Positions 5,908 to 57,884 of a stretch of 64,000 bases of DNA are shown in pieces (positions within the stretch are counted from its first letter, which is position 1; the number at the start of each line of letters is the position of its first letter). The stretch lies in IMG/VR virus record IMGVR_UViG_2585427754_000004; one strand, given 5' to 3'. This stretch comes from a virus (Duplodnaviria; Heunggongvirae; Uroviricota; Caudoviricetes). A program made the position numbers and the translations under genes. Below the pieces are notes generated by a model, which was not told the origin of the DNA, searched no databases, and saw nothing but the letters and a program-made list of their open reading frames with translations.

Positions 5908-6017
5908 TATTGCATCTCTTAGCTACTGACTAATGCGTTCTATTTTACACATAAGTTTTTAATCAATTTAACAGGCTCAAAGTGTAGAGCTTCTGGGCGT
6001 CTAAGACGACAAGTTAT

Positions 6018-6075
6018 GCCTGCTTCTGTATATATATAAATAATAAGTAACTTATTAAATATATACGGAAGCAGG
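6018..6075. repeat. AT-rich palindromic element of about 58 bp, copy 1
   Basis: GCCTGCTTCTGTATATAT ... ATATACGGAAGCAGG with AATAAGTAACTTATT at the centre; a near-identical element occurs at 51287..51345. Confidence 0.6.
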
Positions 6076-6182
6076 TCTTTTAAAAGACACCACCAGAACA
6101 AGTCCCTTCCGTTTCCACTTCCAAAAACTGCCACCAGTCGCTATCATCCGCTCATTGTGATAAGTAAGTAACTACCTACCAG

Positions 6183-6932
6183 GTGAGCCACATGAGCCAA
6201 ATCTTTTTCGATACCATCGACAACGACCAGTACGACTTCATGACAGAGTGGAATACCGCTGTTATGGACAAGTGGGTCGCTGAAAACATTGGTTTGTCGC
6301 GCTGTAAAGATGAGGCTGAACTCTTCGAGACGAAGTGGTTTGATTACCGCGACATGCATCCTCTGATGGCCACCTGTCTATTTACGGAGGCATACAAACG
6401 TCAGTACTCAAATATCATGCTGACGCACGGTCGCGAACACTTTGAAACAGCTCCGTTCACCACCGGGTTAAAACGCCTGCCTTATCAGGAGTTGTCGACT
6501 GCCAATAAAACGTCGCTATGGAAAGCACGCCAGTTTGCGGATCGCTATTGCTGCTCATACGACTACTTTATCTCCACCGTTCTTTCCGCAGCTGCACGAC
6601 GGCTGTGGGACAAGCTGCCGCGTCCGCAGCATTTGTGGCAGCCAGAACTGATTGAGATATTTGAAGATAAATTAGCCAGACGCGCAACAACCCGTCTGGA
6701 TGACTCTCTGGTTAGCTTTAAGCATATGGGAGACATGCAGTTCAACCCGATTCAGGAAAGCTATTTTGAGTGGATTCTGGAGCGTTTGCGCACCATCCCC
6801 CGCAGCAAGCGCATACGCGCAATTTTCTCCGCTATCTGGCTAATGGAAATCGTTCCAGAGCGCCTTATTTCCGCCCACTTTCCAGAAGAACTGGAAGAAG
6901 CACGGCGGTTTATTGATCCCCTATCTAATTAA
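6183..6932 (+). CDS. Hypothetical protein (immediately upstream of the helicase)
   Basis: 249-aa ORF with upstream TAAGTA palindrome motif; no recognisable motif. Confidence 0.35.
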   Translation: MSHMSQIFFDTIDNDQYDFMTEWNTAVMDKWVAENIGLSRCKDEAELFETKWFDYRDMHPLMATCLFTEAYKRQYSNIMLTHGREHFETAPFTTGLKRLPYQELSTANKTSLWKARQFADRYCCSYDYFISTVLSAAARRLWDKLPRPQHLWQPELIEIFEDKLARRATTRLDDSLVSFKHMGDMQFNPIQESYFEWILERLRTIPRSKRIRAIFSAIWLMEIVPERLISAHFPEELEEARRFIDPLSN

Positions 6933-9579: not shown

Positions 9580-9654
9580 CAAGTGCCGCTAAAATAAGTA
9601 GATGATTACTTATCTTTCTGTAAGAATACTTTCATCTGTTAGCTAGGAGTTGGT

Positions 9655-13097: not shown

Positions 13098-13875
13098 AAA
13101 CATCATGATAAGTATTTACTTACTTATCTTTTATGTATAAGATGACTTTGTTTTCGTTGAGACGCGACTGTTTGAACTTAAATACAAGTGCAAACGAAGA
13201 AGTCTATCTGGCAGTAGCCTAATAAGCCAAACACCAGCGAGGTCAGTTTCCAGCCTCGTTACCGAAATGGGACACACTGAGCGAGTGTGATTGCATAACG
13301 CAGGAGGGAACATTCATGTTCCCTCCGATGAAGTAACAGAATGGGCGGTTGGTATATTTTCAACTCCATATGACTCCCGGATTCTTAGCCACTGACCGCC
13401 CATCCTGTTACGTCATTTTGTTCAATTATGTCGTTTATACTGGGTTAAAAAGCGGCGACGTAGCCCGGCTGGTATGGTTAGCCAGCACACAACGTTGAGG
13501 CCATTACATTTTTATCAATTCTAAGGTTCTATTCACAGAGATACCGGCGAGCGTTGATATGTAACATGTTGGGCAAACATTCAATCGGAGTAGTGGCCTC
13601 AACGTTGTGAAGACAGGATTGTTGTGTAGGTTTAACCACTGTTGCCATTGGTGCCTGTTTTCACAACAAATGATTCCATACATCACATTGTATAAATTAC
13701 AAAGTAGGTGCTGTCCTCAGAAACATCATCTACTTAAAGATTTTGCCTTCTACTATTGAGCGAAGTCGAAAGCGTCTGGCACTAACGAAAAGTGCAAGTA
13801 GCGGTGCGTTTCCTGGCAGAAACTAAACCGTCGCGATTGGCACTGTTGAGTAATAAATACTGGCAGTGCTGAATT

Positions 13876-27122: not shown

Positions 27123-27239
27123 TTTTTGATAGATAATAAGTAAGTACTGATCTATCATTTAACAGCTCGAAAGAGCCACGAATGAACGAAAGCCCAACGC
27201 GCATAGCGCCATCGGCCAAATCACAACAAGGAGAAACAC

Positions 27240-28268: not shown

Positions 28269-28285
28269 TCCCATTACGTGACCAG

Positions 28286-28313
28286 TAAGGCGTCTACGGA
28301 CGCCTTACTTTTT
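28286..28313 (+). terminator. Terminator hairpin (AGGCGTC family)
   Basis: GTAAGGCGTC-tacg-GACGCCTTAC followed by TTTTT. Confidence 0.6.
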
Positions 28314-28328
28314 GGAAGGAATGTACCG

Positions 28329-29273
28329 GTGAATTATCTCTTCGTAGATGGCAATAGCCTTGGTTATTACCACCAACAATCTGACAAATTGCACAACGGC
28401 GAAATGGAAGTACAGGCTGCTTTCGGCTTTGTTAAGAACGTCCGTCGTTATGCCTCCATCCTCCATGCCCGACCTATGATTCTTTGGGATGGATTTAGTG
28501 ACAAGCGTCGCGACTTTTACCCGGACTACAAAGCAAATCGCGACGACGATCCTGATATGAAAAAGATGAAGGAAGGCTTTGCTATCCAGAAGCCATACAT
28601 CCTAAAAATGATGACCGCGCTTGGAGTTACCCAACTCATTGCAAAAGATGCAGAAGCGGATGATCTGGCCGGGCTGCTGGTATCCCGCATGGCACCGCAG
28701 CCAACCGTTGAACACATCTATCTGTTAACAGGCGATAGCGACTGGCTTCAGTTAGTTCGTGAAAACGTAAGCTGGGTAAGCCTGCGTGAAGACGCCAAAA
28801 ACAAGCAGGTTAATTTTGAGCAATTTGCGGAGCTGACAGGATTCGCCACGCCTCGCGCATTTTTGGAAGCAAAAGCATTACAAGGCGATAACTCGGACAA
28901 CATTAGCGGTGTTGGTGGCATTGGTGCTGGCGGTGCGAAAGAGCTGCTGCATGAATGGGGAAGTGTCGCAACGATGGTACGCGGCATCAACGACGGCTCA
29001 ATCGTGGTTAATAAAGGGCGTCATAAGACCGCCTTCAACAAACTAGCGAAGAATGCCTTCAACGAGAAAACAGGCTGTCGAATGCTCGAAGCGTTCAAGA
29101 GAAACATCACGCTAATGAACCTGATTGAGACGAAGTTTCCGCCTACCGAAATCGAAACAATCAAAGGCAATCGTGACGTGAAAGCATTCGAGCAACTGTG
29201 CTACGAGCTGAATTTCCGTTCGTTCCTTGAAGACCTTGAAGTGTTTGTTCTTCCATTCGAAAGGTATTGCTAA
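28329..29273 (+). CDS. 5'-3' exonuclease / flap endonuclease (FEN family)
   Basis: DAEADDLAG, GDSDWLQL and H3TH motif LQGDNSDNISGVGGIGAGGAKEL. Start set at in-frame GTG after the upstream terminator; ORF track 28278. Confidence 0.75.
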   Translation: MNYLFVDGNSLGYYHQQSDKLHNGEMEVQAAFGFVKNVRRYASILHARPMILWDGFSDKRRDFYPDYKANRDDDPDMKKMKEGFAIQKPYILKMMTALGVTQLIAKDAEADDLAGLLVSRMAPQPTVEHIYLLTGDSDWLQLVRENVSWVSLREDAKNKQVNFEQFAELTGFATPRAFLEAKALQGDNSDNISGVGGIGAGGAKELLHEWGSVATMVRGINDGSIVVNKGRHKTAFNKLAKNAFNEKTGCRMLEAFKRNITLMNLIETKFPPTEIETIKGNRDVKAFEQLCYELNFRSFLEDLEVFVLPFERYC

Positions 29274-29541: not shown

Positions 29542-30615
29542 ATGGCAAAAGGAAAATCCGCACTGGCACTTGCTCTGAAAAAGAAAATCGGTAGCAACGA
29601 CGAAATTCAGAAAGTAACTCATTGGATTGATACAGGCTTTCCACCGTTAAACAAAGCTATTTCTGGTCGTTACGATGGCGGCTTCCCATGTGGTCGTATC
29701 GTCGAAGTATTCGGTCCTCCAAGTGCAGGGAAAACGTTCCTTGCAACAGCAGCGATGATCTCCGCTCAAAAACAAGATGGTCTGGCGGTATTCCTCGATC
29801 ATGAAAACAGTTTTGACGTTGGCCTGGCTGTAGCCAATGGCCTGAACGCAGATGAGGATGACGGTCAGTGGGTATACAAGCAGCCAGATACCTTCGAAGA
29901 CTCTGTAGAGTTGATCGGCACAATACTTAAATTGGTTCGTGATGAAGAGCTTATCCCCGAATCAGCACCTATCTGTATCGTGGCTGACTCTCTTGCGTCT
30001 ATGGTTCCGAACTCCAAAGCCGAGAAGTTCGAAAAGATGGCTGAAGGCACTGCCAAAGACAAAGATCAGCTAAACATGAACGACAATACGGCACTGGCTC
30101 GTGCGACGAGTGCGAACTTCCCTACTCTGGCTTTGTGGGCACGCAAATACAACGCCTGCATCATCTTCTTGAATCAGGTTCGCACAAAAATCGGTGTAAT
30201 GTTTGGCGACCCTACTACGTCGCCAGGTGGAGATTCACCGAAGTTCTACGCTTCTGTACGTATCCGTCTTGGTGCATCGGTGATGAAGGATGGTAAAGAG
30301 AAGATCGGCCAGGACGTAGGCGCAGAATGCATCAAAAACAAAGTTGCACCACCGTATGGCAAATGCACCTGGAAATTCTACTTCGATCCTACTCGTGGCC
30401 TCGACGTTATCGAATCGCTCGTCGAGTACATGCTGGAAGAAGGATACCTGCCAAAGAACGCCAGCGGGCGAGTTGAAATTGGTGACAAGAAATACACAAA
30501 ATCGCAGATCGTCGAGATGTATCGGGAGAAGCCATTAGCAGAAATCATTGCTGCGTTACAGACGATAGATGACCGACGAGAGAAGACATCACCAACAGAA
30601 GAACTAGAAGATTAA
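29542..30615 (+). CDS. recA: RecA-family recombinase
   Basis: GRIVEVFGPPSAGKTFLA Walker A and IFLNQVRTKIGVMFGDPTTSPGGDSPKFYASVR closely match bacterial RecA core motifs. Confidence 0.85.
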   Translation: MAKGKSALALALKKKIGSNDEIQKVTHWIDTGFPPLNKAISGRYDGGFPCGRIVEVFGPPSAGKTFLATAAMISAQKQDGLAVFLDHENSFDVGLAVANGLNADEDDGQWVYKQPDTFEDSVELIGTILKLVRDEELIPESAPICIVADSLASMVPNSKAEKFEKMAEGTAKDKDQLNMNDNTALARATSANFPTLALWARKYNACIIFLNQVRTKIGVMFGDPTTSPGGDSPKFYASVRIRLGASVMKDGKEKIGQDVGAECIKNKVAPPYGKCTWKFYFDPTRGLDVIESLVEYMLEEGYLPKNASGRVEIGDKKYTKSQIVEMYREKPLAEIIAALQTIDDRREKTSPTEELED

Positions 30616-30620
30616 TTATC

Positions 30621-30646
30621 AGGCGTCCAAACGGACGCCTTTTTTG
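30621..30646 (+). terminator. Rho-independent terminator (AGGCGTCC family)
   Basis: AGGCGTCC-aaac-GGACGCCT followed by TTTTTTG. Confidence 0.7.
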
Positions 30647-30708
30647 TATATTGAAAATGTATAAGCACTTACTTATCATTAGCACACAATAACCACATAG
30701 GAAAACAC

Positions 30709-30909
30709 ATGATCAAACTCTATCTTATGGCAGTAGTTACAGGTCTATCTGTAGTTTTCATCTACTGTTTGCTGGTTCCGTCGCTGATCTCTACTAAAAG
30801 CGACATTGCCGTAATGCTTGGAATCATCGTTGCTTTTGGCGCTCCTGTGATCGGGTTTATTGCAGGTCGTAAGTTTCTAAAGTCACTCATCAATTCGAAG
30901 GAGAAGTAA
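30709..30909 (+). CDS. Small two-helix membrane protein (possible partner of the SPFH protein)
   Basis: 66 aa, two hydrophobic segments; stop 3 nt before the next start. Confidence 0.35.
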   Translation: MIKLYLMAVVTGLSVVFIYCLLVPSLISTKSDIAVMLGIIVAFGAPVIGFIAGRKFLKSLINSKEK

Positions 30910-30912
30910 GTA

Positions 30913-31743
30913 ATGAAGAAAGGTTTACTGGCAGTGATCGTGGCCGCTGTTTGCACAATGGGTCTTACTGGCTGCGATCGCGTGGAGCCTGGATACGTTG
31001 GCATCAAAGTAAACAAATTAGGTGAAGACAAAGGGATTGGTGAAGTGGTTGGCGTTGGTCGCCAATGGACAGGTCTTAACACCGAACTTTACGTATTCCC
31101 GACCTTCAAACAAATGAAGACCTACGACGAGCCGTTCACATTCCAGATGAGTGACGGTACTGCTATTGGTCACAAAATTGGCGTTGCGTATCTGGTTAAT
31201 CGTGACAAGGTAACGACGGTGTTCCAGACCTATCGCAAAGGCGTAGACGATATCACCGAATCAGATCTGCGTCAGAAAATTGCCGACTCTCTAAACCGTT
31301 TGGCCAGCCGTATGACCACTGACTCATTTATCGACGGTGGTAAGGCACAATTGCTGGACAACGCACTGAAAGATATTCAGAAAGAGATGTCTCCGGTTGG
31401 TATTGAGGTACTGAGCCTGTCATGGGTTGGAAAGCCTGATTACCCAAAAACCGTCATAGAATCTATCAACGCCAAAGTAACGGCTAACCAGCGTACTCTG
31501 CAACGTCAGCAGGAAGTAGAACAACGTAAAGCTGAGGCGAATATGCTGCGTGAACAGGCTAATGGTGAAGCTGATGCTATCCGTGCTCGTGCGCAGGCAG
31601 AAGCAGATGCCATTCGTCTGCGCGGTGAAGCTCTGCGTCAAAACCCGAACGTTATGGAACTGGAAGCCATCAATAAATGGAATGGCCAGTTACCGCAGTA
31701 CATGACTCAAGGGGCTAACACTCCTTTCATTACAGTGAAATAA
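30913..31743 (+). CDS. SPFH/Band-7 domain lipoprotein
   Basis: Signal peptide with lipobox LTGC; C-terminal Ala/Glu/Arg-rich helix (EQRKAEANMLREQANGEADAIRARAQAEADAIRLRGEA) typical of the prohibitin/HflK fold. Confidence 0.55.
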   Translation: MKKGLLAVIVAAVCTMGLTGCDRVEPGYVGIKVNKLGEDKGIGEVVGVGRQWTGLNTELYVFPTFKQMKTYDEPFTFQMSDGTAIGHKIGVAYLVNRDKVTTVFQTYRKGVDDITESDLRQKIADSLNRLASRMTTDSFIDGGKAQLLDNALKDIQKEMSPVGIEVLSLSWVGKPDYPKTVIESINAKVTANQRTLQRQQEVEQRKAEANMLREQANGEADAIRARAQAEADAIRLRGEALRQNPNVMELEAINKWNGQLPQYMTQGANTPFITVK

Positions 31744-31758: not shown

Positions 31759-31785
31759 CAGGCGTCCAGTTGGACGCCTTTTTTA
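31759..31785 (+). terminator. Rho-independent terminator (AGGCGTCC family)
   Basis: AGGCGTCC-agtt-GGACGCCT followed by TTTTTT. Confidence 0.7.
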
Positions 31786-31834: not shown

Positions 31835-32260
31835 ATGACAGCTATTAAGAAACTCTACGATGCCGCAAACGTGGCTCTGGATGTTATTGATGATGAAGTA
31901 GCAAAAGGCTTTCCTGAACCTGATTGGGCGCATCAGCTACGAAACGCTATCGCAGAAATGACCCCACCAGATCCAACCCCCGACGAGACAGACTGGCAGC
32001 GATTCATCCGTATGTACGCTCAGGAAATAGGTCCAACGCCAACGGCAGAGCAGGCAATGCTGCTGAAATACTTCAAAGAGGCGGGAGAGGATTTACCAAT
32101 TGATGACTCAGCATATTGGTTCCACTGCGCATGGCGTAAGTATGACGTGATATTCACACAAGGCATGGGAAGCAAAGATATGGTTGTGTGGCATCTACTC
32201 CATATAGACACAGCCGTTGACAGAGTTATTGAACAGTTTTTCCCTAAACAAGAAGATTGA
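31835..32260 (+). CDS. Hypothetical protein
   Basis: 141-aa ORF with conserved upstream AAACAATTTGTTTAAAA motif. Confidence 0.35.
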   Translation: MTAIKKLYDAANVALDVIDDEVAKGFPEPDWAHQLRNAIAEMTPPDPTPDETDWQRFIRMYAQEIGPTPTAEQAMLLKYFKEAGEDLPIDDSAYWFHCAWRKYDVIFTQGMGSKDMVVWHLLHIDTAVDRVIEQFFPKQED

Positions 32261-32591: not shown

Positions 32592-32806
32592 GTTTACAGT
32601 AAAATTTATATAAGTTAGTATCTACCTATCATGAAGATTTTTATTGAATACTTGTTACTCATCGTTTCAATAGCTTTTGTCATCGACTGCATTTTCACTG
32701 GTGTCATTCGTAAAGTCTTTTCCCCGGTGCACGACGTAGTCATAAACGCTTTGGCTATCGTGCTCGTATTTAATTCAGCATTTGATGTAATCAAAGAGGT
32801 GGCAGC

Positions 32807-33142
32807 ATGAAGGCCATCCCATTCGCGCTGTTGTTCCTTTCTTCGATCGTTGTGGCCGACACCACTGTTTATCAGTGTGAAATGTCTGTAGCCGACGTTA
32901 AGAATGGCGCTCTTACCGACGTCATAAAAGCACCATATGGAGCGATGGTCGTAGACAGCGGCGACCAGTTCTATGTTGTGCGTGACGATCGAGTGTTGTC
33001 ATCCCCATATCTCACAAATCGTAATGGCAAATTAACCGGCGTCGGAGAAGACCACTTCGTATACAACAAATACAAGGGCTTCTATGGCGTTCACGCTTCT
33101 CAGCAAAGCTACCTTTTCGATGACTGCAAGGAGGTTGGATAA
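32807..33142 (+). CDS. Secreted/periplasmic hypothetical protein
   Basis: N-terminal signal peptide MKAIPFALLFLSSIVVA. Confidence 0.35.
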   Translation: MKAIPFALLFLSSIVVADTTVYQCEMSVADVKNGALTDVIKAPYGAMVVDSGDQFYVVRDDRVLSSPYLTNRNGKLTGVGEDHFVYNKYKGFYGVHASQQSYLFDDCKEVG

Positions 33143-33354
33143 TGGCATTAACACTGGCAGGTCTGGAAATCGAGAAAACAAGCGGCTACTGGCGTGCTAA
33201 GGGTTTCAAGCAGCCTGGCATTCTTGAGCGTCTGGAACGTGAAGATGGGTATATCGTCCACCAGCGGCGTGAATGGCGTATGTACGATCCAGAAACAGGA
33301 AAACTGACTACAAAAGCCGGAACACTTTGGGGTCTGTTGAAGAAAATTCACTGA
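33142..33354 (+). CDS. Hypothetical small protein
   Basis: 70-aa ORF, start overlaps previous stop. Confidence 0.25.
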   Translation: MALTLAGLEIEKTSGYWRAKGFKQPGILERLEREDGYIVHQRREWRMYDPETGKLTTKAGTLWGLLKKIH

Positions 33355-33843: not shown

Positions 33844-34899
33844 CTATTTGCGAGTCTTTGCCTTGCGCAACTCTTCGAGAAGCGCCAGTTCTTCTTTACT
33901 CAACATGACCATTTTGCCTTCTTTTTCGTCAGGCACAACGTCGATAATGTCATCTTGATTCTCATCTGGGAGGCTATATTCCGTCTCATCATTATCGATT
34001 TTTGTTGATATTTGTGCCTGGCGTAACTTTGGCCGCCTATAGTGGATGACGAAGTAGACCGAGTTTCCGCGCTTAACTTCCGTGTAATCGAGATATCCTA
34101 TCTCTCGCAGCTGTTCCATAGCCTTTCTTACCGTCGCATTCTGAGTAATAGTGCGACTTGTCAGATTAAGTCTGGCGCGTAAACGGGCTAGTGATATTGG
34201 TGCCGGATCAGGCGGCAAACTTTCAATAAAAGTATAAAGCGCCTGAGCGGATTCTTTTCTTGAGAGTTCGTTTATAGCCCGGAGTTGCAGAAGAACCTTT
34301 TTGTCGAACTGGTAGAGTTCGAAAATCTTGGGATCTGCTTTCAGTTCGACCGTATCGTGCTTGACACTATATTTTGCCGTTTGCACAAGATGCGTTACGT
34401 AAAACTCATCAGAGCCTTTGCTACGGAACGAGATGGTATTTGTGGCAATACGGCTTAGCGAACTGTCCAGGCGTTTGCGTAACTTCGCTGATGACCTGGC
34501 GGTCGGAATGCCACACAGCCTTACAAACTCAACGAACGGCAACGTGACAGTATCGCCAACGACCTTGTGTTTGGCAAACGCGTGGATTATTCCCACCCAC
34601 GTTTTAAAGTCGTTATCCATATCAAGCCGAAGGCCAGAGATCCTTATGTCTTCGTACCCTTCGGCTTTTGCCAGAGACAGCTGTTTGAGTTCAGCAGAGG
34701 CATCCATAGAGACCATTTGCCCCTTTCTTCCTCTGGATGTCGATTTCAGCGTCGGAACGAAGAGGCCCAGACGCATCAAAGCAACAGGCTGAACAGTGTT
34801 ATTAGTGTTAGGAACCAACGTAACAACTTCGCCTGTCTTTTTATCTGTTTCTGAAAATGCTTCAACGATCGCTATGTTTTTATTGCCGTTTTCGCTCAT
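33844..34899 (-). CDS. repA: Iteron-type plasmid replication initiator (RepA-like)
   Basis: 351 aa with winged-helix-like C-terminal region; flanked on both sides by iterons of the same sequence family; DnaA box and GATC cluster upstream. Confidence 0.55.
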
Positions 34900-34987
34900 T
34901 CCAAATGTCTCTTGTTATTCGACGGCTTTGGTGGCCTTTGCTGATTACAGTGGATAGTAGCACTCATCACAGCGGTTATCCTACCGT

Positions 34988-35059
34988 CTATAGTGGTTTT
35001 TCTCCTCTCTATAGTGGTTGCTTTGCTCCCTATAGTGGATTATTCGCTCTCTATAGTGG
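34988..35059. repeat. Four direct iterons (CTATAGTGG core) at exact 21-bp spacing upstream of repA
   Basis: Core starts at 34988, 35009, 35030, 35051. Confidence 0.7.
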
Positions 35060-35173
35060 ATATCGATCATGTCTGAAGGCAGATGGCACAACGGTTTGAG
35101 GTTGGCGGGGATCTTATTGGGTCTTTATGGGTCTCTTTGGTTCTCTTTGTGATCTGAATTACTGGATCGGGCC

Positions 35174-35182
35174 TGTGGATAA
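35174..35182 (-). promoter_or_regulatory. DnaA box (TTATCCACA on minus strand)
   Basis: TGTGGATAA on the plus strand is a perfect 9-mer consensus; two 8/9 matches nearby (35221..35229, 35548..35556). Confidence 0.5.
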
Positions 35183-35345
35183 AAATCAGAGGATTTCAAG
35201 AACAGGTAACTCTACTCTTCTGTGGATATTTAAGGACATAAGAATCATGACTAAGAGTAGAGTTTAAAATATATCTATTTATATCAGTATGTTAATGAAG
35301 AATTAAGTCATTAAGTTATCCATAAAAGACAATGTGCTCTACTCT

Positions 35346-35440
35346 CTACAGTGGATATATACAGCTCTCCAGAGTGGTTGTTTTACTCTTCATAGCGGTT
35401 ATTCAGCTCTCTACAGAGGTTTCTTTGCTCTCCATAGTGG
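35346..35440. repeat. Second array of five iterons at about 21-bp spacing
   Basis: CTACAGTGG, CAGAGTGG, CATAGCGG, CTACAGAGG, CATAGTGG cores at about 35346, 35369, 35390, 35411, 35432. Confidence 0.6.
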
Positions 35441-35483
35441 ATGGCAACACCCTTTCAGACCAGTAACCGCAACGGCTAGAGGC

Positions 35484-35541
35484 GATCGGGGATCTCTTTG
35501 GATCTTCTATTTGATCTTACTTGGGATCTCTTATTTGGATC
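35484..35541. promoter_or_regulatory. Cluster of six GATC sites in 58 bp (candidate Dam/SeqA-regulated origin region)
   Basis: GATC at 35484, 35491, 35501, 35513, 35525, 35538; a smaller cluster at 35065..35168. Confidence 0.5.
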
Positions 35542-35642
35542 TATCCAGTGGATAACTGGGATAAGTAAAACAGGCAAATGCAGATTAAGGTATGCCTAAT
35601 GAGTTATCGTAGCATCGGCCAATAACTACTGAAAAAACGATT

Positions 35643-36287: not shown

Positions 36288-36541
36288 CCCTCCAGATCGT
36301 ATATTGGCGTAGATAGAATCTACGCCCCCTCAAAATAGCTCTCATAGCGTTCTACAGTGATCCTGTCTTATTTTTAGTCATACAGACAAGCAAAGTTGCG
36401 CCACGATAAATAGGTATATACTTACTTATAAATTTTGTATATTAAGGCGCTCGTTTCATTCCTAACATACCGTTATGCATAGTTGTTTACCTCCTCATTG
36501 CTCTTAGAATTTGTATCAAAATAACCACAAAGGAAAAACAC

Positions 36542-41085: not shown

Positions 41086-41118
41086 TTTCATTGATAGGTA
41101 AGTGCTTATCTATTAACA

Positions 41119-45758: not shown

Positions 45759-45834
45759 TCTGTCTGGTCTTGTTCTCTCAATGAATGTAAACTCACACGA
45801 TGAATAAGTAATTACTTATCTTTGTGAGGTTTTT

Positions 45835-50488: not shown

Positions 50489-50671
50489 CGTCCCCCTACT
50501 GAAAATAAAGCCCATAGAGAGCTTTATAGTGCTGGGTAAGCCAATCACATATCCAGCACCACAAAAACGCGCCAGAGAGCTTCTCGTTTGCATTTCTGGC
50601 GCGTTTTATTTGATTGCCAGACATAAAATCAAATGCAAAAATAGGTAATCACTTACCTATCGAGAAAGACG

Positions 50672-52263: not shown

Positions 52264-52854
52264 ATGACGACGAAGACACCAGCCCGATCGCAAGCAAAAA
52301 CTCGCAAAAAAGACAAAAACAAAAATTCTCCCCGCACCAATCCCACAACGCCTGTCGTAGAGTTCAATCCCCAGCTCAAAACCGTGAAAATCTTTAGTGA
52401 TGGCTCTTGCCTTAAAAATCCGGGTGGCCCGGGCGGTTACGGTATCGTTCTCCAGTATCGTGGTGAGGAACGCGAGTTCTCAGATGGTTTTCATAGCACC
52501 ACCAATAACCGCATGGAGATGATGGGGGCACTTATCGGGCTGGAGCGTTTGAAATATCCATGCAACGTTATTTTGCACTCTGATAGCCAGTATCTGAAAA
52601 ACGGCATGACACAGTGGATGAAATGGTGGAAACGCAATGGATGGATGACTTCTGACAAAAAACCGGTAAAGAATGTTGATCTGTGGAAGCGTCTGGATGA
52701 GGCCGCAAGTCGACATAATGTTCGCTGGAAGTGGGTTAAAGGTCACGCCGGGCATCGTGAAAATGAAATATGTGATCGACTCGCGAAGATCGCAGCTTTT
52801 TCAGCAGCAGATATGCCTCACAAGAAAGATATTGGTTTTGTTTATAACAAATAG
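52264..52854 (+). CDS. rnhA: Ribonuclease HI
   Basis: FSDGSC ... GGPGGYG ... HSDSQY ... [18 protein letters not shown] matches RNase H catalytic motifs. Start at MTTKT; ORF track begins at 52180. Confidence 0.8.
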
Positions 52855-53002
52855 TAAGTAAGTGTTTACCTATCATTTTAAATCATGTATCTTATCGGCG
52901 TCAGGATGACAATGTGTCGGTAAGACACAGTTCCAGGATGGAACGAGAAAGGCGGCTGGCAATCGCCAGCCGCAACTCTTTCTGACACTGGATGGAGTCC
53001 AC

Positions 53003-56138: not shown

Positions 56139-57824
56139 ATGAATACAGCCCTTTCCATCATCGACGATGCCAACTCAAACACTGCTATCGACTATCGGCA
56201 GGAAATGAACGTCATCCACGAAATTGTGGCCGAGTGCGAGAAAGAGATCGCCTTCATGTATCAGGTACACGACTTCGTTTATGGCGACGAACGCCACAAC
56301 ATGATTAATCGCCTGCTGAGACTAAACCATCGACCAGATGAAGATCGCTCGCGTTTAAATCGAGGTTGGTTGGATAAAGTCGATCTGGAATGGGTGAAAC
56401 AGAATATTTGGGCCGAGTACTGGAGTAAGGTCACGGACATGACTAACGTTTTGCTGATCATGCCAGCTTCCCGTCGAGATGAGTGGCGCGAGCAGTTTAT
56501 AGAGGGCAAACAGGAAGTCATCAAAACTGACAGAACCGGCTACCAGATGAAGGTTAAAGAGTTCGTTGGTGTACCGGAGTTCAAAGCAGAAACGGTCATA
56601 CCCACGATGCTTAATTTGCTGAATGACAGGCACAAATATCTCTCTGAGCGCGTGTATGGCTTGTTTAAGGCGCTGAGTCCTGCGCACAAGACAAATAAGA
56701 CAAACGGTTTCAGCGAGCGTCTGATAATCGCTGACTGCATTTCTGATTTCTGGCGGGACAGCGTTAGCGTGAACTATCGCAAAGAGGACTACATCGACGA
56801 TCTGCGTGTCTTGCTTCATTTCTTCGCGCACAAAGAATTTATTACCATCAACCGCACTGCTGAGGTGCTATCAGCTGCGTATCGAGCAAACGACTGCCAG
56901 ACCGGTGACTGGATGAACGTCGATGGAAATCTGATGCGCGTGAAGATGTTCAAGAACGGCAACGTTCACTTTGAAATACATCCTGACGTGGCCTGGAAGT
57001 TGAATGAGGTGCTGGCTTACAGTATGCCTGCTGCAATCCCCGCGCCATGCCGAACTGCGCCAAAAACACGGGCACCAAAGCAGTTCGGGTTAATCCAGAA
57101 GACGATCTCCGTGCCGGTTCGCACTGCGCTTCGTGACGGGCGATTGAGCAAAGACAAAGGCGTATGGTACTTCTCTGATTCAGCTCTCCAGAAGTCGCAG
57201 GTGGAAGAGCTTGAGCGCACACTGAGCTTCATTGGCGGCGTGCAGGAGAAAAAGCACTGGCAGTTCCCGTATGACATCGGCCATACGCTAAATACGATTG
57301 TGGCTACCGGTTTAATACCGGATACAAAATCACACCAGTTCTACCCTACCCCACGCTTGATTGCTGAGTACGTTGCCAGAGCCACTGAATTGAAGCCTGG
57401 TGAGAAGCTGCTGGAGCCTCAAGCCGGACGTGGGGATCTTCTGGCCTATATTAACGCCGATCTGGAAGATGTTACCTGCATAGAAATCGCACCTCTCTTC
57501 GCTGATATCCTGCGTGGAAAAGGGTATACGAACACGATTTGCTGCGACTTCATAAAGTGGTCTGAGGACAACGCAGGTTATCAGTTCGACAAAATCGTTA
57601 TGAACCCGCCGTACTCGCTTGGTCGTCATAGAGAGCACACGCTGGCTGCGCTGGGGCATCTGAAAGTCGGCGGGCGTCTTGTAGCAGTATTGCCGGGCAC
57701 TGCGCCAATACTGGACTGGATGACGATGGATAATTACGTTTATGCCAGAGGGAAGTCGTTTACCAACGAGTTTGAAGACACAGGGATCACAGTCAGCGTA
57801 TACGTTTTCAAACGCGTTAAATGA
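56139..57824 (+). CDS. Large protein with C-terminal SAM-dependent N6-adenine methyltransferase domain
   Basis: Motif I LEPQAGRGDL followed by motif IV MNPPYS in the C-terminal third; about 370-aa N-terminal region of unknown function. Confidence 0.5.
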   Translation: MNTALSIIDDANSNTAIDYRQEMNVIHEIVAECEKEIAFMYQVHDFVYGDERHNMINRLLRLNHRPDEDRSRLNRGWLDKVDLEWVKQNIWAEYWSKVTDMTNVLLIMPASRRDEWREQFIEGKQEVIKTDRTGYQMKVKEFVGVPEFKAETVIPTMLNLLNDRHKYLSERVYGLFKALSPAHKTNKTNGFSERLIIADCISDFWRDSVSVNYRKEDYIDDLRVLLHFFAHKEFITINRTAEVLSAAYRANDCQTGDWMNVDGNLMRVKMFKNGNVHFEIHPDVAWKLNEVLAYSMPAAIPAPCRTAPKTRAPKQFGLIQKTISVPVRTALRDGRLSKDKGVWYFSDSALQKSQVEELERTLSFIGGVQEKKHWQFPYDIGHTLNTIVATGLIPDTKSHQFYPTPRLIAEYVARATELKPGEKLLEPQAGRGDLLAYINADLEDVTCIEIAPLFADILRGKGYTNTICCDFIKWSEDNAGYQFDKIVMNPPYSLGRHREHTLAALGHLKVGGRLVAVLPGTAPILDWMTMDNYVYARGKSFTNEFEDTGITVSVYVFKRVK

Positions 57825-57884
57825 TAGGTAAATACTTACTTAATTTGTGTAAGAATGTAATAACTAAACGATAAGAGAAAACAC

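Follow-up and report, generated by a model that had tools for sequence, protein, structure and literature searches.

A conserved phage gene pair encoding an SPFH-domain predicted lipoprotein and a two-helix membrane protein in an SSU5-like phage-plasmid of Escherichia coli

Viral record IMGVR_UViG_2585427754_000004 was analyzed as a stretch of 64,000 nucleotides (64 kb; the window, in what follows), in which two adjacent plus-strand genes encode a small membrane protein and a protein of the SPFH/Band-7 family. The locus of this pair is 100% identical to that of E. coli plasmid NZ_CP061531, 98.4% identical to that of phage Cyrano (pLF82), and 78% identical to that of Salmonella phage SSU5, and the window is therefore an SSU5-like phage-plasmid of E. 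coli. The first gene (30709-30909, +) encodes the partner, a two-helix hairpin membrane protein of 66 amino acids, and the second (30913-31743, +) encodes the SPFH/Band-7 lipoprotein of 276 amino acids. The two open reading frames (ORFs) are separated by 3 nucleotides, and a GGAG motif 10 nucleotides 5′ of the SPFH ATG falls within the 3′ end of the partner ORF, which argues that the two are translationally coupled.

The SPFH lipoprotein and its hairpin partner

A preliminary description, made from the sequence without database searches, had called the larger protein an SPFH-domain lipoprotein and named a profile search as the way to check the assignment. The Pfam Band_7 profile (PF01145) matches the protein over positions 2-176 of 176 with 106.2 bits (cut-off 23.6; E 2.6e-30), and the protein is a full-length member of PHROG 200, annotated as 'lipoprotein' (E 3e-107). 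The SPFH domain spans approximately residues 20-176 and is followed by a long helix (179-243) and a tail with a conserved KWNGxLP motif, in which W256, G258, and P261 are invariant among aligned homologs. An AlphaFold2 model, built from a 41-sequence alignment with a predicted local distance difference test (pLDDT) score of 80.9, comprises a signal helix, a beta-rich region (20-95), an alpha/beta region (97-176), a 65-residue helix (179-243), and a short helix (245-255), with the tail that carries the three invariant residues modeled at low confidence. The best Foldseek matches in the PDB were HflC and HflK (7vhq; E 7e-14 and 2e-13), followed by erlin1/2, prohibitin, stomatin, flotillin, QmcA, and major vault protein, with identities of 15-19%. 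The matches to HflK/C, erlin, prohibitin, stomatin, flotillin, and QmcA had a probability of 1.00 and covered full-length cage subunits over 240-300 aligned columns, and the modeled succession of an SPFH alpha/beta domain and a long coiled-coil helix is that of the cage-forming SPFH members. Profile and model both uphold the SPFH assignment. A sequence search of the PDB returned HflK as the sole match, a faint one (E 0.007), and the protein stays far below the NCBIfam equivalog cut-offs for HflC (TIGR01932, 30.2 against 134.4 bits) and HflK (TIGR01933, 18.7 against 159.4 bits). It is an SPFH protein with an HflK/C-like orientation, neither HflK nor HflC. The label 'serine protease', carried by some homologs, was rejected for this protein, as the protease domain is absent and just a weak PHROG match lies on the coiled coil.

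The N-terminus, MKKGLLAVIVAAVCTMGLTG-C21-D22, consists of MKK, a hydrophobic core, and the lipobox L-T-G-C21, which gives a signal peptide of residues 1-20, a predicted lipidated Cys21 (codon 30973-30975), and Asp22 as the +2 residue. The signal peptide ends in a lipobox of the form [LVI][ASTVI][GAS]C. A pattern search recognized a lipobox in 99 of the 120 SPFH homologs closest to the window protein, with Asp at +2 in 93 of these 99 and Glu in five, and the lipoprotein call of the preliminary description is supported. Asp at +2 is the Lol-avoidance signal for inner-membrane retention in Enterobacteriaceae, and the SPFH lipoprotein is predicted on this basis to be kept in the inner membrane.

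The partner has two hydrophobic helices, a short polar turn between them (P24-S-L-I-S28-T-K-S-D), and a basic C-terminal tail, GRKFLKSLINSKEK. The positive-inside rule would put both of its termini in the cytoplasm (N-in/C-in) and the turn in the periplasm. The protein is a full-length member of PHROG 1130 'membrane protein' (E 3e-25), a family assigned to the category 'moron, auxiliary metabolic gene and host takeover', and together with the two helices this match agrees with the small membrane partner of the preliminary description. It is not a classical SPFH partner, as it matches neither NfeD nor any other Pfam family at E ≤ 0.01, nor any NCBIfam family. A permissive Pfam scan (E ≤ 1) of 28 diverse partners gave scattered chance transmembrane matches, with no NfeD (PF01957), holin, or Imm among the families reported, and a PDB profile search for a solved relative returned chance matches to short transmembrane peptides only. 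Across phyla, the alignment of these 28 partners has just three conserved positions, with P24 and S28 invariant and G38 near-invariant, and a turn consensus of Pro-x-[LMF]-[IVLF]-Ser.

Distribution and pairing

By tblastn, the SPFH protein occurs in 378 of 50,697 phage records. Temperate phages with the gene are, for instance, phiP27, Stx2a phages, the P2-like phage P88, and SSU5-like elements. It is also present in obligately lytic groups, among them N4-like Schitoviridae, rV5-like Vequintavirinae, FelixO1-like Ounavirinae, 45-kb Pseudomonas podophages, phiCbK-like phages, and Lak megaphages. The hosts of carrier phages extend to Caulobacter, Sphingomonas, and Leptospira. An exhaustive HMMER search of 1.8 billion representatives yielded 194 clusters at E ≤ 1e-30 and 906 at E ≤ 1e-10, and the locus is found in 314 of 5,426 complete E. 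coli genomes (∼6%). The pair is a widespread phage module and not local cargo. The preliminary description had regarded it as an accessory unit, and this part of the claim fails: each of the 44 SSU5-like loci retrieved has the pair, as do many unrelated phages, some of them lytic, the GC content of the pair resembles that of its flanks, and the pair is under strong purifying selection. The ratio of nonsynonymous to synonymous substitution rates (dN/dS) against SSU5 is 0.03 for the SPFH gene and 0.16 for the partner, with 0.02 for the neighboring RecA gene. Recent horizontal acquisition was likewise rejected, given the GC content and the presence in every one of the 44 loci.

Related loci were collected with a search seeded by a 7-sequence SPFH alignment, and partner calls were checked by inspection, including those of partners whose ORF runs into the SPFH start or whose Ser is followed by Met. 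The partner lies immediately 5′ of the SPFH gene in 82 of 83 viral loci, the lone exception being truncated by a contig end. It accompanies the SPFH gene in the N4-like phages S6 and Pokken, Lak-B6, Aeromonas phage Gekk3-15, and phiP27, and stands one ORF away in the rV5-like phage 4MG; in Burkholderia phage Maja it is a Ser-to-Asn variant. It also adjoins SPFH homologs of 30-50% identity in Xenorhabdus, Morganella, Sutterella, Luteibacter, Dyella, Leptospira, Saprospirales, Muribaculaceae, Flavobacterium, Dependentiae, and Sphingomonas. Two loci on E. coli/Shigella chromosomes (L088 and L089, about 6001-6825) carry a 78%-identical SPFH gene with no partner, and their upstream DNA looks degraded. 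A cluster of 1366 member sequences, also 78% identical and named from Shigella boydii (P0019), may be the same chromosomal form.

In several homologs the two proteins form a single polypeptide. The fusions P0310 of Rhodopseudomonas, P0316, P0326, P0145, P0156, and others run from the hairpin through a basic loop and a signal-like helix with a lipobox to the SPFH domain, and P0151 carries the partner at the C-terminus of the SPFH protein. These fusions reproduce the topology predicted for the split proteins and argue for a joint physical action of partner and SPFH protein.

Elsewhere the pair occupies early, DNA-metabolism, or anti-defense regions of phage genomes. It belongs to the early operon of P88 and lies between repressor and integrase in phiP27 and in a Rhodopseudomonas prophage. 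Neighbors of the SPFH locus in lytic and unclassified phages encode dUTPase, ribonucleotide reductase (RNR), ThyA, RtcB, NAMPT, Acb2/Tad1, or Lar. The main text of the PAK_P3 transcriptomics paper makes no mention of the gene. A 41-kb phage contig (L170; Logan SRR29078204) has a distant SPFH homolog in a block with Acb2/Tad1-like, NAMPT/NAPRTase, and Lar-like genes; this anti-defense company is suggestive of a counter-defense role, at a single locus where the partner ORF is unconfirmed.

Regulation, expression, and neighboring genes

The pair lies between two intrinsic terminators on the plus strand, one after the RecA-like gene (30621-30646; AGGCGTCC-AAAC-GGACGCCT followed by six T) and one after the SPFH gene (31760-31785; AGGCGTCC-AGTT-GGACGCCT followed by six T). 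Their hairpins, at 30621-30640 and 31760-31779, are the sole copies of AGGCGTCC-N4-GGACGCCT in the window, where shuffled sequences give an expectation of 0. Each has a folding energy of -15.1 kcal/mol, with a z score of -5.2 for the copy at 30621. Across the 44 SSU5-like relatives the stems are kept and the loops vary, and one lineage (L042) shows a compensatory double change in the stem, GGCGCCC/GGGCGCC. A third, related hairpin follows the gp32-like gene (28285-28308; GTAAGGCGTC-TACG-GACGCCTTAC plus five T, -19.8 kcal/mol), so the terminator family that the preliminary description had placed around the pair is real but small. This third hairpin overlaps the GTG start given to the exonuclease gene in a program-made ORF list; by the Cyrano annotation, the true start is probably near 28329.

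A sigma-70-type promoter for the pair is placed at 30651-30679 (+), with TTGAAA and TATCAT separated by 17 nucleotides and 10 of 12 consensus positions matched. It is almost invariant across all SSU5-like variants despite diverging flanks and, as a whole element, unique in the window. Its spacer contains an operator-like near-palindrome, ATAAGCACTTACTTAT (30661-30676, unstranded), which overlaps the -10 hexamer and matches the 14-nucleotide core AAGYACTTACTTAT exactly; this core has 17 strand-hits in the window against 0.9 expected. A palindrome of about 20 bp, ATARGTA-N6-TACYTAT (half-site about ATAGGTAAGT), occurs 17 times in the window against 0.5 expected, with sites at approximately 1404-1429 and at 6160-6179, 9594-9613, 13108-13127, 27136-27155, 32610-32629, 36410-36429, 41094-41113, 45804-45819, 50641-50660, 52854-52873, and 57824-57843. 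The palindromes are mainly intergenic and, in Cyrano coordinates, lie 5′ of gp32, SbcD, RNR, ThyX, and CYRAN_60, with a TATCAT-like -10 hexamer within the right arm. The copy in the pair promoter is most like the 16-bp site before ThyX at 45804. Judged by their sequence and arrangement, the palindromes look like dispersed operators of a prophage regulator, comparable to C1 in P1, and this regulator may bind at the pair promoter as well.

Transcription of the nearly identical locus of Cyrano has been published as RNA sequencing values, log2(fpkm+5), where fpkm is fragments per kilobase per million, given here as replicate 1/replicate 2 (S1 Table, PMC9928086). The partner gene (CYRAN_56) is at the floor in stationary phase in lysogeny broth (LB; 2.32/2.32), at about 3-5 in culture medium, and at 7.6/7.7 after 6 h in macrophages, and the SPFH gene (CYRAN_57) passes from 4.3/3.0 through about 5 to 7.25/7.4 under the same three conditions (PMC9928086). 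The flanking genes stay low, with 3.6/3.1, about 4, and 4.06/4.05 for RecA upstream and 2.7/2.3, about 3, and 4.2/3.9 for CYRAN_58 downstream (PMC9928086). Such values agree with a separate transcription unit that is shut off in the resting lysogen and switched on under certain conditions. With its own conserved promoter, its flanking terminators, and the rise of the pair between low flanks in a 98%-identical element, the unit is indeed self-contained, which is the half of the earlier 'self-contained accessory unit' that has survived. Three small genes downstream, CYRAN_60-62, are also silent in LB and strongly up in macrophages (log2 2.3-3.8 to 8.3-9.0; PMC9928086), the same pattern as that of the pair, and their promoter holds a good copy of the palindrome. 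Their counterparts in the window (32631-33354) encode a 59-amino-acid membrane protein, a protein with a signal-peptide-like N-terminus, and a Cra-like protein.

Upstream of the pair lie genes for UvsY, a gp32-like single-stranded DNA-binding protein, a 5′-3′ exonuclease, and RecA, and downstream lie DUF7238, small ORFs, and RepA with iterons. The preliminary description had set the pair between a recombinase gene and the replicon. The adjacent gene is a recombinase in that it encodes a RecA homolog (Pfam RecA, E 2e-42), a match on which a site-specific recombinase was rejected as its identity, and five small ORFs separate the pair from repA. The RecA-like gene of the window (29542-30615) encodes 357 amino acids and is intein-free. 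In Cyrano the RecA gene measures 2340 nucleotides, and in many sister plasmids the same position is annotated as a LAGLIDADG family homing endonuclease; the size difference and this annotation suggest that an intein or homing endonuclease is inserted in RecA of Cyrano and the sister plasmids, a presence/absence polymorphism that directly adjoins the pair. The DUF7238 gene begins just 3′ of the second terminator (31835-32260; Pfam E 5e-38), and the database protein P0018 is predicted to join SPFH and DUF7238 in one chain, probably as the result of a deletion. The repA gene (33844-34899, -) adjoins two clusters of iterons with 21-bp spacing (34942-35554; nine copies of TCTCTATAGTGGAT), and this iteron region is the plasmid replication origin of the phage-plasmid.

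Proposed role and competing explanations

No characterized SPFH system, whether HflK/C-FtsH, SPFH-NfeD, the flotillins, or YdjI-PspA, has the architecture of the pair. HflK and HflC of E. coli, which form a cage around FtsH (PDB 7vhq, 7wi3, 9cz2), likewise have their SPFH domain at the inner membrane on its periplasmic side, share the order of SPFH domain, long helix, short helix, and tail, and are the best structural match (about 260-300 columns). They differ from the 276-residue window protein in greater length, in an N-terminal transmembrane helix where the latter has a lipid anchor, and in forming a hetero-pair, whereas the window has one SPFH gene and a 66-residue hairpin; identity is 17-19%. 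The SPFH-NfeD systems (QmcA-YbbJ of E. coli, PDB 8z5g; YqiK-YqiJ; Pyrococcus PH1511-PH1510) are also two-gene operons of an SPFH protein and a membrane partner, and QmcA matches the fold of the SPFH model at Foldseek rank 34. The window-type partner, however, has no NfeD domain (PF01957 in 0 of 28 partners) and is too short for the OB-fold or protease part, and QmcA faces the cytoplasm whereas the window SPFH protein is predicted to be exported. In Bacillus subtilis, small membrane proteins (YdjG/YdjH) recruit the SPFH protein YdjI (SamI), with PspA, into a membrane-stress module (PMC8581546, bioRxiv 10.64898/2026.02.06.704340); that SPFH protein is cytosolic, host-encoded, and not a lipoprotein, and no sequence relation of its partners to the window partner was found. 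Phage exclusion proteins with an action at the envelope include T4 Imm and Sp, T5 Llp, P22 SieA, and TP-J34 Ltp, which are likewise small membrane proteins or lipoproteins; they are lineage-specific and have no sequence or fold relation to the pair, which spans phage families and bacterial phyla.

The pair is best explained, with a probability of roughly 55%, as a phage membrane module that is under repressor control, is expressed early, and assembles a scaffold resembling HflK/C at the inner membrane, facing the periplasm. Gene structure, protein family, conservation of the pair, the fusion forms, the fold, and the expression pattern in Cyrano are established parts of this explanation, and lipidation, inner-membrane location, oligomerization, partner contact, and repressor control are its predictions. 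The two genes would form one translationally coupled transcription unit encoding a two-part inner-membrane complex that faces the periplasm. The 276-residue protein would be exported, lipidated on Cys21, and held in the inner membrane by Asp22, and its SPFH domain, 65-residue helix, and KWNGxLP tail would most likely drive assembly of a ring or cage like those of HflK/C, stomatin, or prohibitin. The hairpin may be a dedicated membrane-embedded partner, serving as anchor, nucleator, or enclosed cargo of the scaffold, with its Pro...Ser turn exposed on the same, periplasmic side as the SPFH protein. Through the motif that its promoter shares with the early DNA-metabolism promoters of the element, the unit would be off in the resting plasmid-prophage and on upon derepression or stress, and in other phages the pair appears to lie in early or host-takeover regions. 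As an architecture, a lipid-anchored, periplasm-facing inner-membrane SPFH scaffold that has its own hairpin partner and is produced early during phage development is reasonably secure.

The best guess as to the purpose is that the scaffold fences off or stabilizes the inner membrane of the infected or induced cell. Such an effect could keep the membrane energized, bar further phage DNA, or guard against membrane-targeting suicide effectors until lysis. Superinfection exclusion or envelope protection, raised in the preliminary description, may be the outcome. A general membrane property is a more likely target than a specific receptor because the pair is conserved across different entry machines and hosts of different phyla. 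A bolder and doubtful form of the proposal is that the pair represents an unrecognized class of SPFH machine, a lipid-anchored periplasmic cage with a two-helix partner deployed early by many phage families to shield the inner membrane, shutting out competitor DNA or neutralizing pore-forming or depolarizing abortive-infection effectors, and would thus be a broadly conserved counter-defense or exclusion device.

Several points weigh against a repressor-controlled, two-part scaffold. The copy in the pair promoter misses the 20-bp palindrome at ≤2 mismatches and is a half-site or 16-bp variant only, the Cyrano data comprise two replicates in which other Cyrano genes are likewise up in macrophages, and early timing in lytic phages is deduced from gene position alone. 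The AlphaFold2 model covers a monomer, from which a cage cannot be seen. The partner is apparently absent from Bruynoghevirus U47, CcrSwift, and the two chromosomal copies. No experiments showing oligomerization, lipidation, partner binding, or a phenotype were found for any member, no functional study of a phage SPFH protein emerged from the literature searches, and the role of the phage protein is described as unclear in papers in which it is mentioned (PMC13239085, PMC8540360).

An unlikely alternative, which takes up the superinfection exclusion of the preliminary description, is that the plasmid-prophage expresses the pair constitutively as a moron, excluding or aborting unrelated superinfecting phages by lysogenic conversion. 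Small membrane proteins and lipoproteins are frequent among known exclusion proteins, and the predicted envelope location of the pair, its own promoter and flanking terminators, and the category assigned to PHROG 1130 all accord with such a role. A moron is recognized by its own promoter and terminator, which the pair has, and by expression in the lysogen well above the prophage background, whereas CYRAN_56 and CYRAN_57 are at background in LB (PMC9928086). They are also outside the 13 morons of the Cyrano study, which sought such genes in LB-grown LF82 (PMC9928086), and neither protein matched the defense models of PADLOC-DB 2.0.0 at E ≤ 1. A constitutive defense expressed by the lysogen is disfavored because of this silence in LB, the absence from the moron list, and the lack of a PADLOC match. 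Moreover, the same pair is found in many phages that are obligately lytic and never form a lysogen in need of protection. Exclusion genes typically evolve fast, whereas the SPFH gene equals RecA in conservation.

It is similarly improbable that the lipoprotein joins, replaces, or blocks host HflK/C-FtsH, altering proteolysis of phage regulators or membrane proteins and, for example, biasing the decision between lysis and lysogeny. HflC and HflK are its closest relatives in both structure and sequence, the orientation inferred for it is the same, periplasmic and inner-membrane-anchored, and depositors have labeled homologs HflK/HflC-like or 'putative FtsH modulator'; the stability of lambda CII, moreover, is under HflK/C control (PMC8540360). 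The identity of just 15-19% and scores far under the HflC/HflK equivalog cut-offs speak against it, as do the lipid anchor in place of a transmembrane helix, a dedicated partner unrelated to FtsH, and the frequency of the family in lytic phages that make no lysogeny decision.

Two further explanations are very poorly favored. TLR2 is stimulated by any triacylated lipoprotein, which lowers the value of a parallel that might be drawn with PM0222, an HflK/C-like prophage protein of Pasteurella multocida. That protein is reported to signal via TLR1/2 and to affect virulence (PMC9872710), and a released lipoprotein of the present family, carried for example in vesicles and acting on the animal host, would agree with induction within macrophages at 6 h (PMC9928086), but any homology between PM0222 and the window protein is conjectural, Asp at +2 predicts inner-membrane retention, and the family is common in phages of environmental bacteria (Caulobacter, Sphingomonas, Leptospira). 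Equally remote is a lysis-timing device in which the hairpin is a class II holin-like protein or antiholin restrained by the SPFH scaffold: class II holins have two helices and a basic C-terminal tail, as the partner does at a similar size and predicted topology, but the holin/endolysin/spanin cassette of the element lies elsewhere (CYRAN_22-25), the pair is in early regions outside lysis cassettes in every phage examined, and no holin family was matched in the Pfam scan of the 28 partners.

The sequences themselves are already in databases as 'SPFH domain-containing protein' and 'hypothetical protein', and PHROG 200 and PHROG 1130 are catalog entries for exactly this pair, with annotations that do not include mechanism, obligate linkage, or fused forms. 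In the literature searched, the obligate pairing with the Pro...Ser hairpin, the fused forms, the conserved inner-membrane retention signal, and the early repressed expression are undescribed. SPFH scaffolds occur throughout life, most bacterial ones have no clear function, and phage genome papers repeatedly note an SPFH or 'HflK-like' lipoprotein without explanation. The analysis turns this vague annotation into a small, well-defined, and testable two-gene module, predicted to face the periplasm and to be made early. Should its effect be only minor housekeeping, the pair would remain ordinary annotated genes; should it protect the membrane or exclude phages, the finding would matter for competition among phages, for how phage-plasmids with resistance genes behave, and for selecting phages for therapy.

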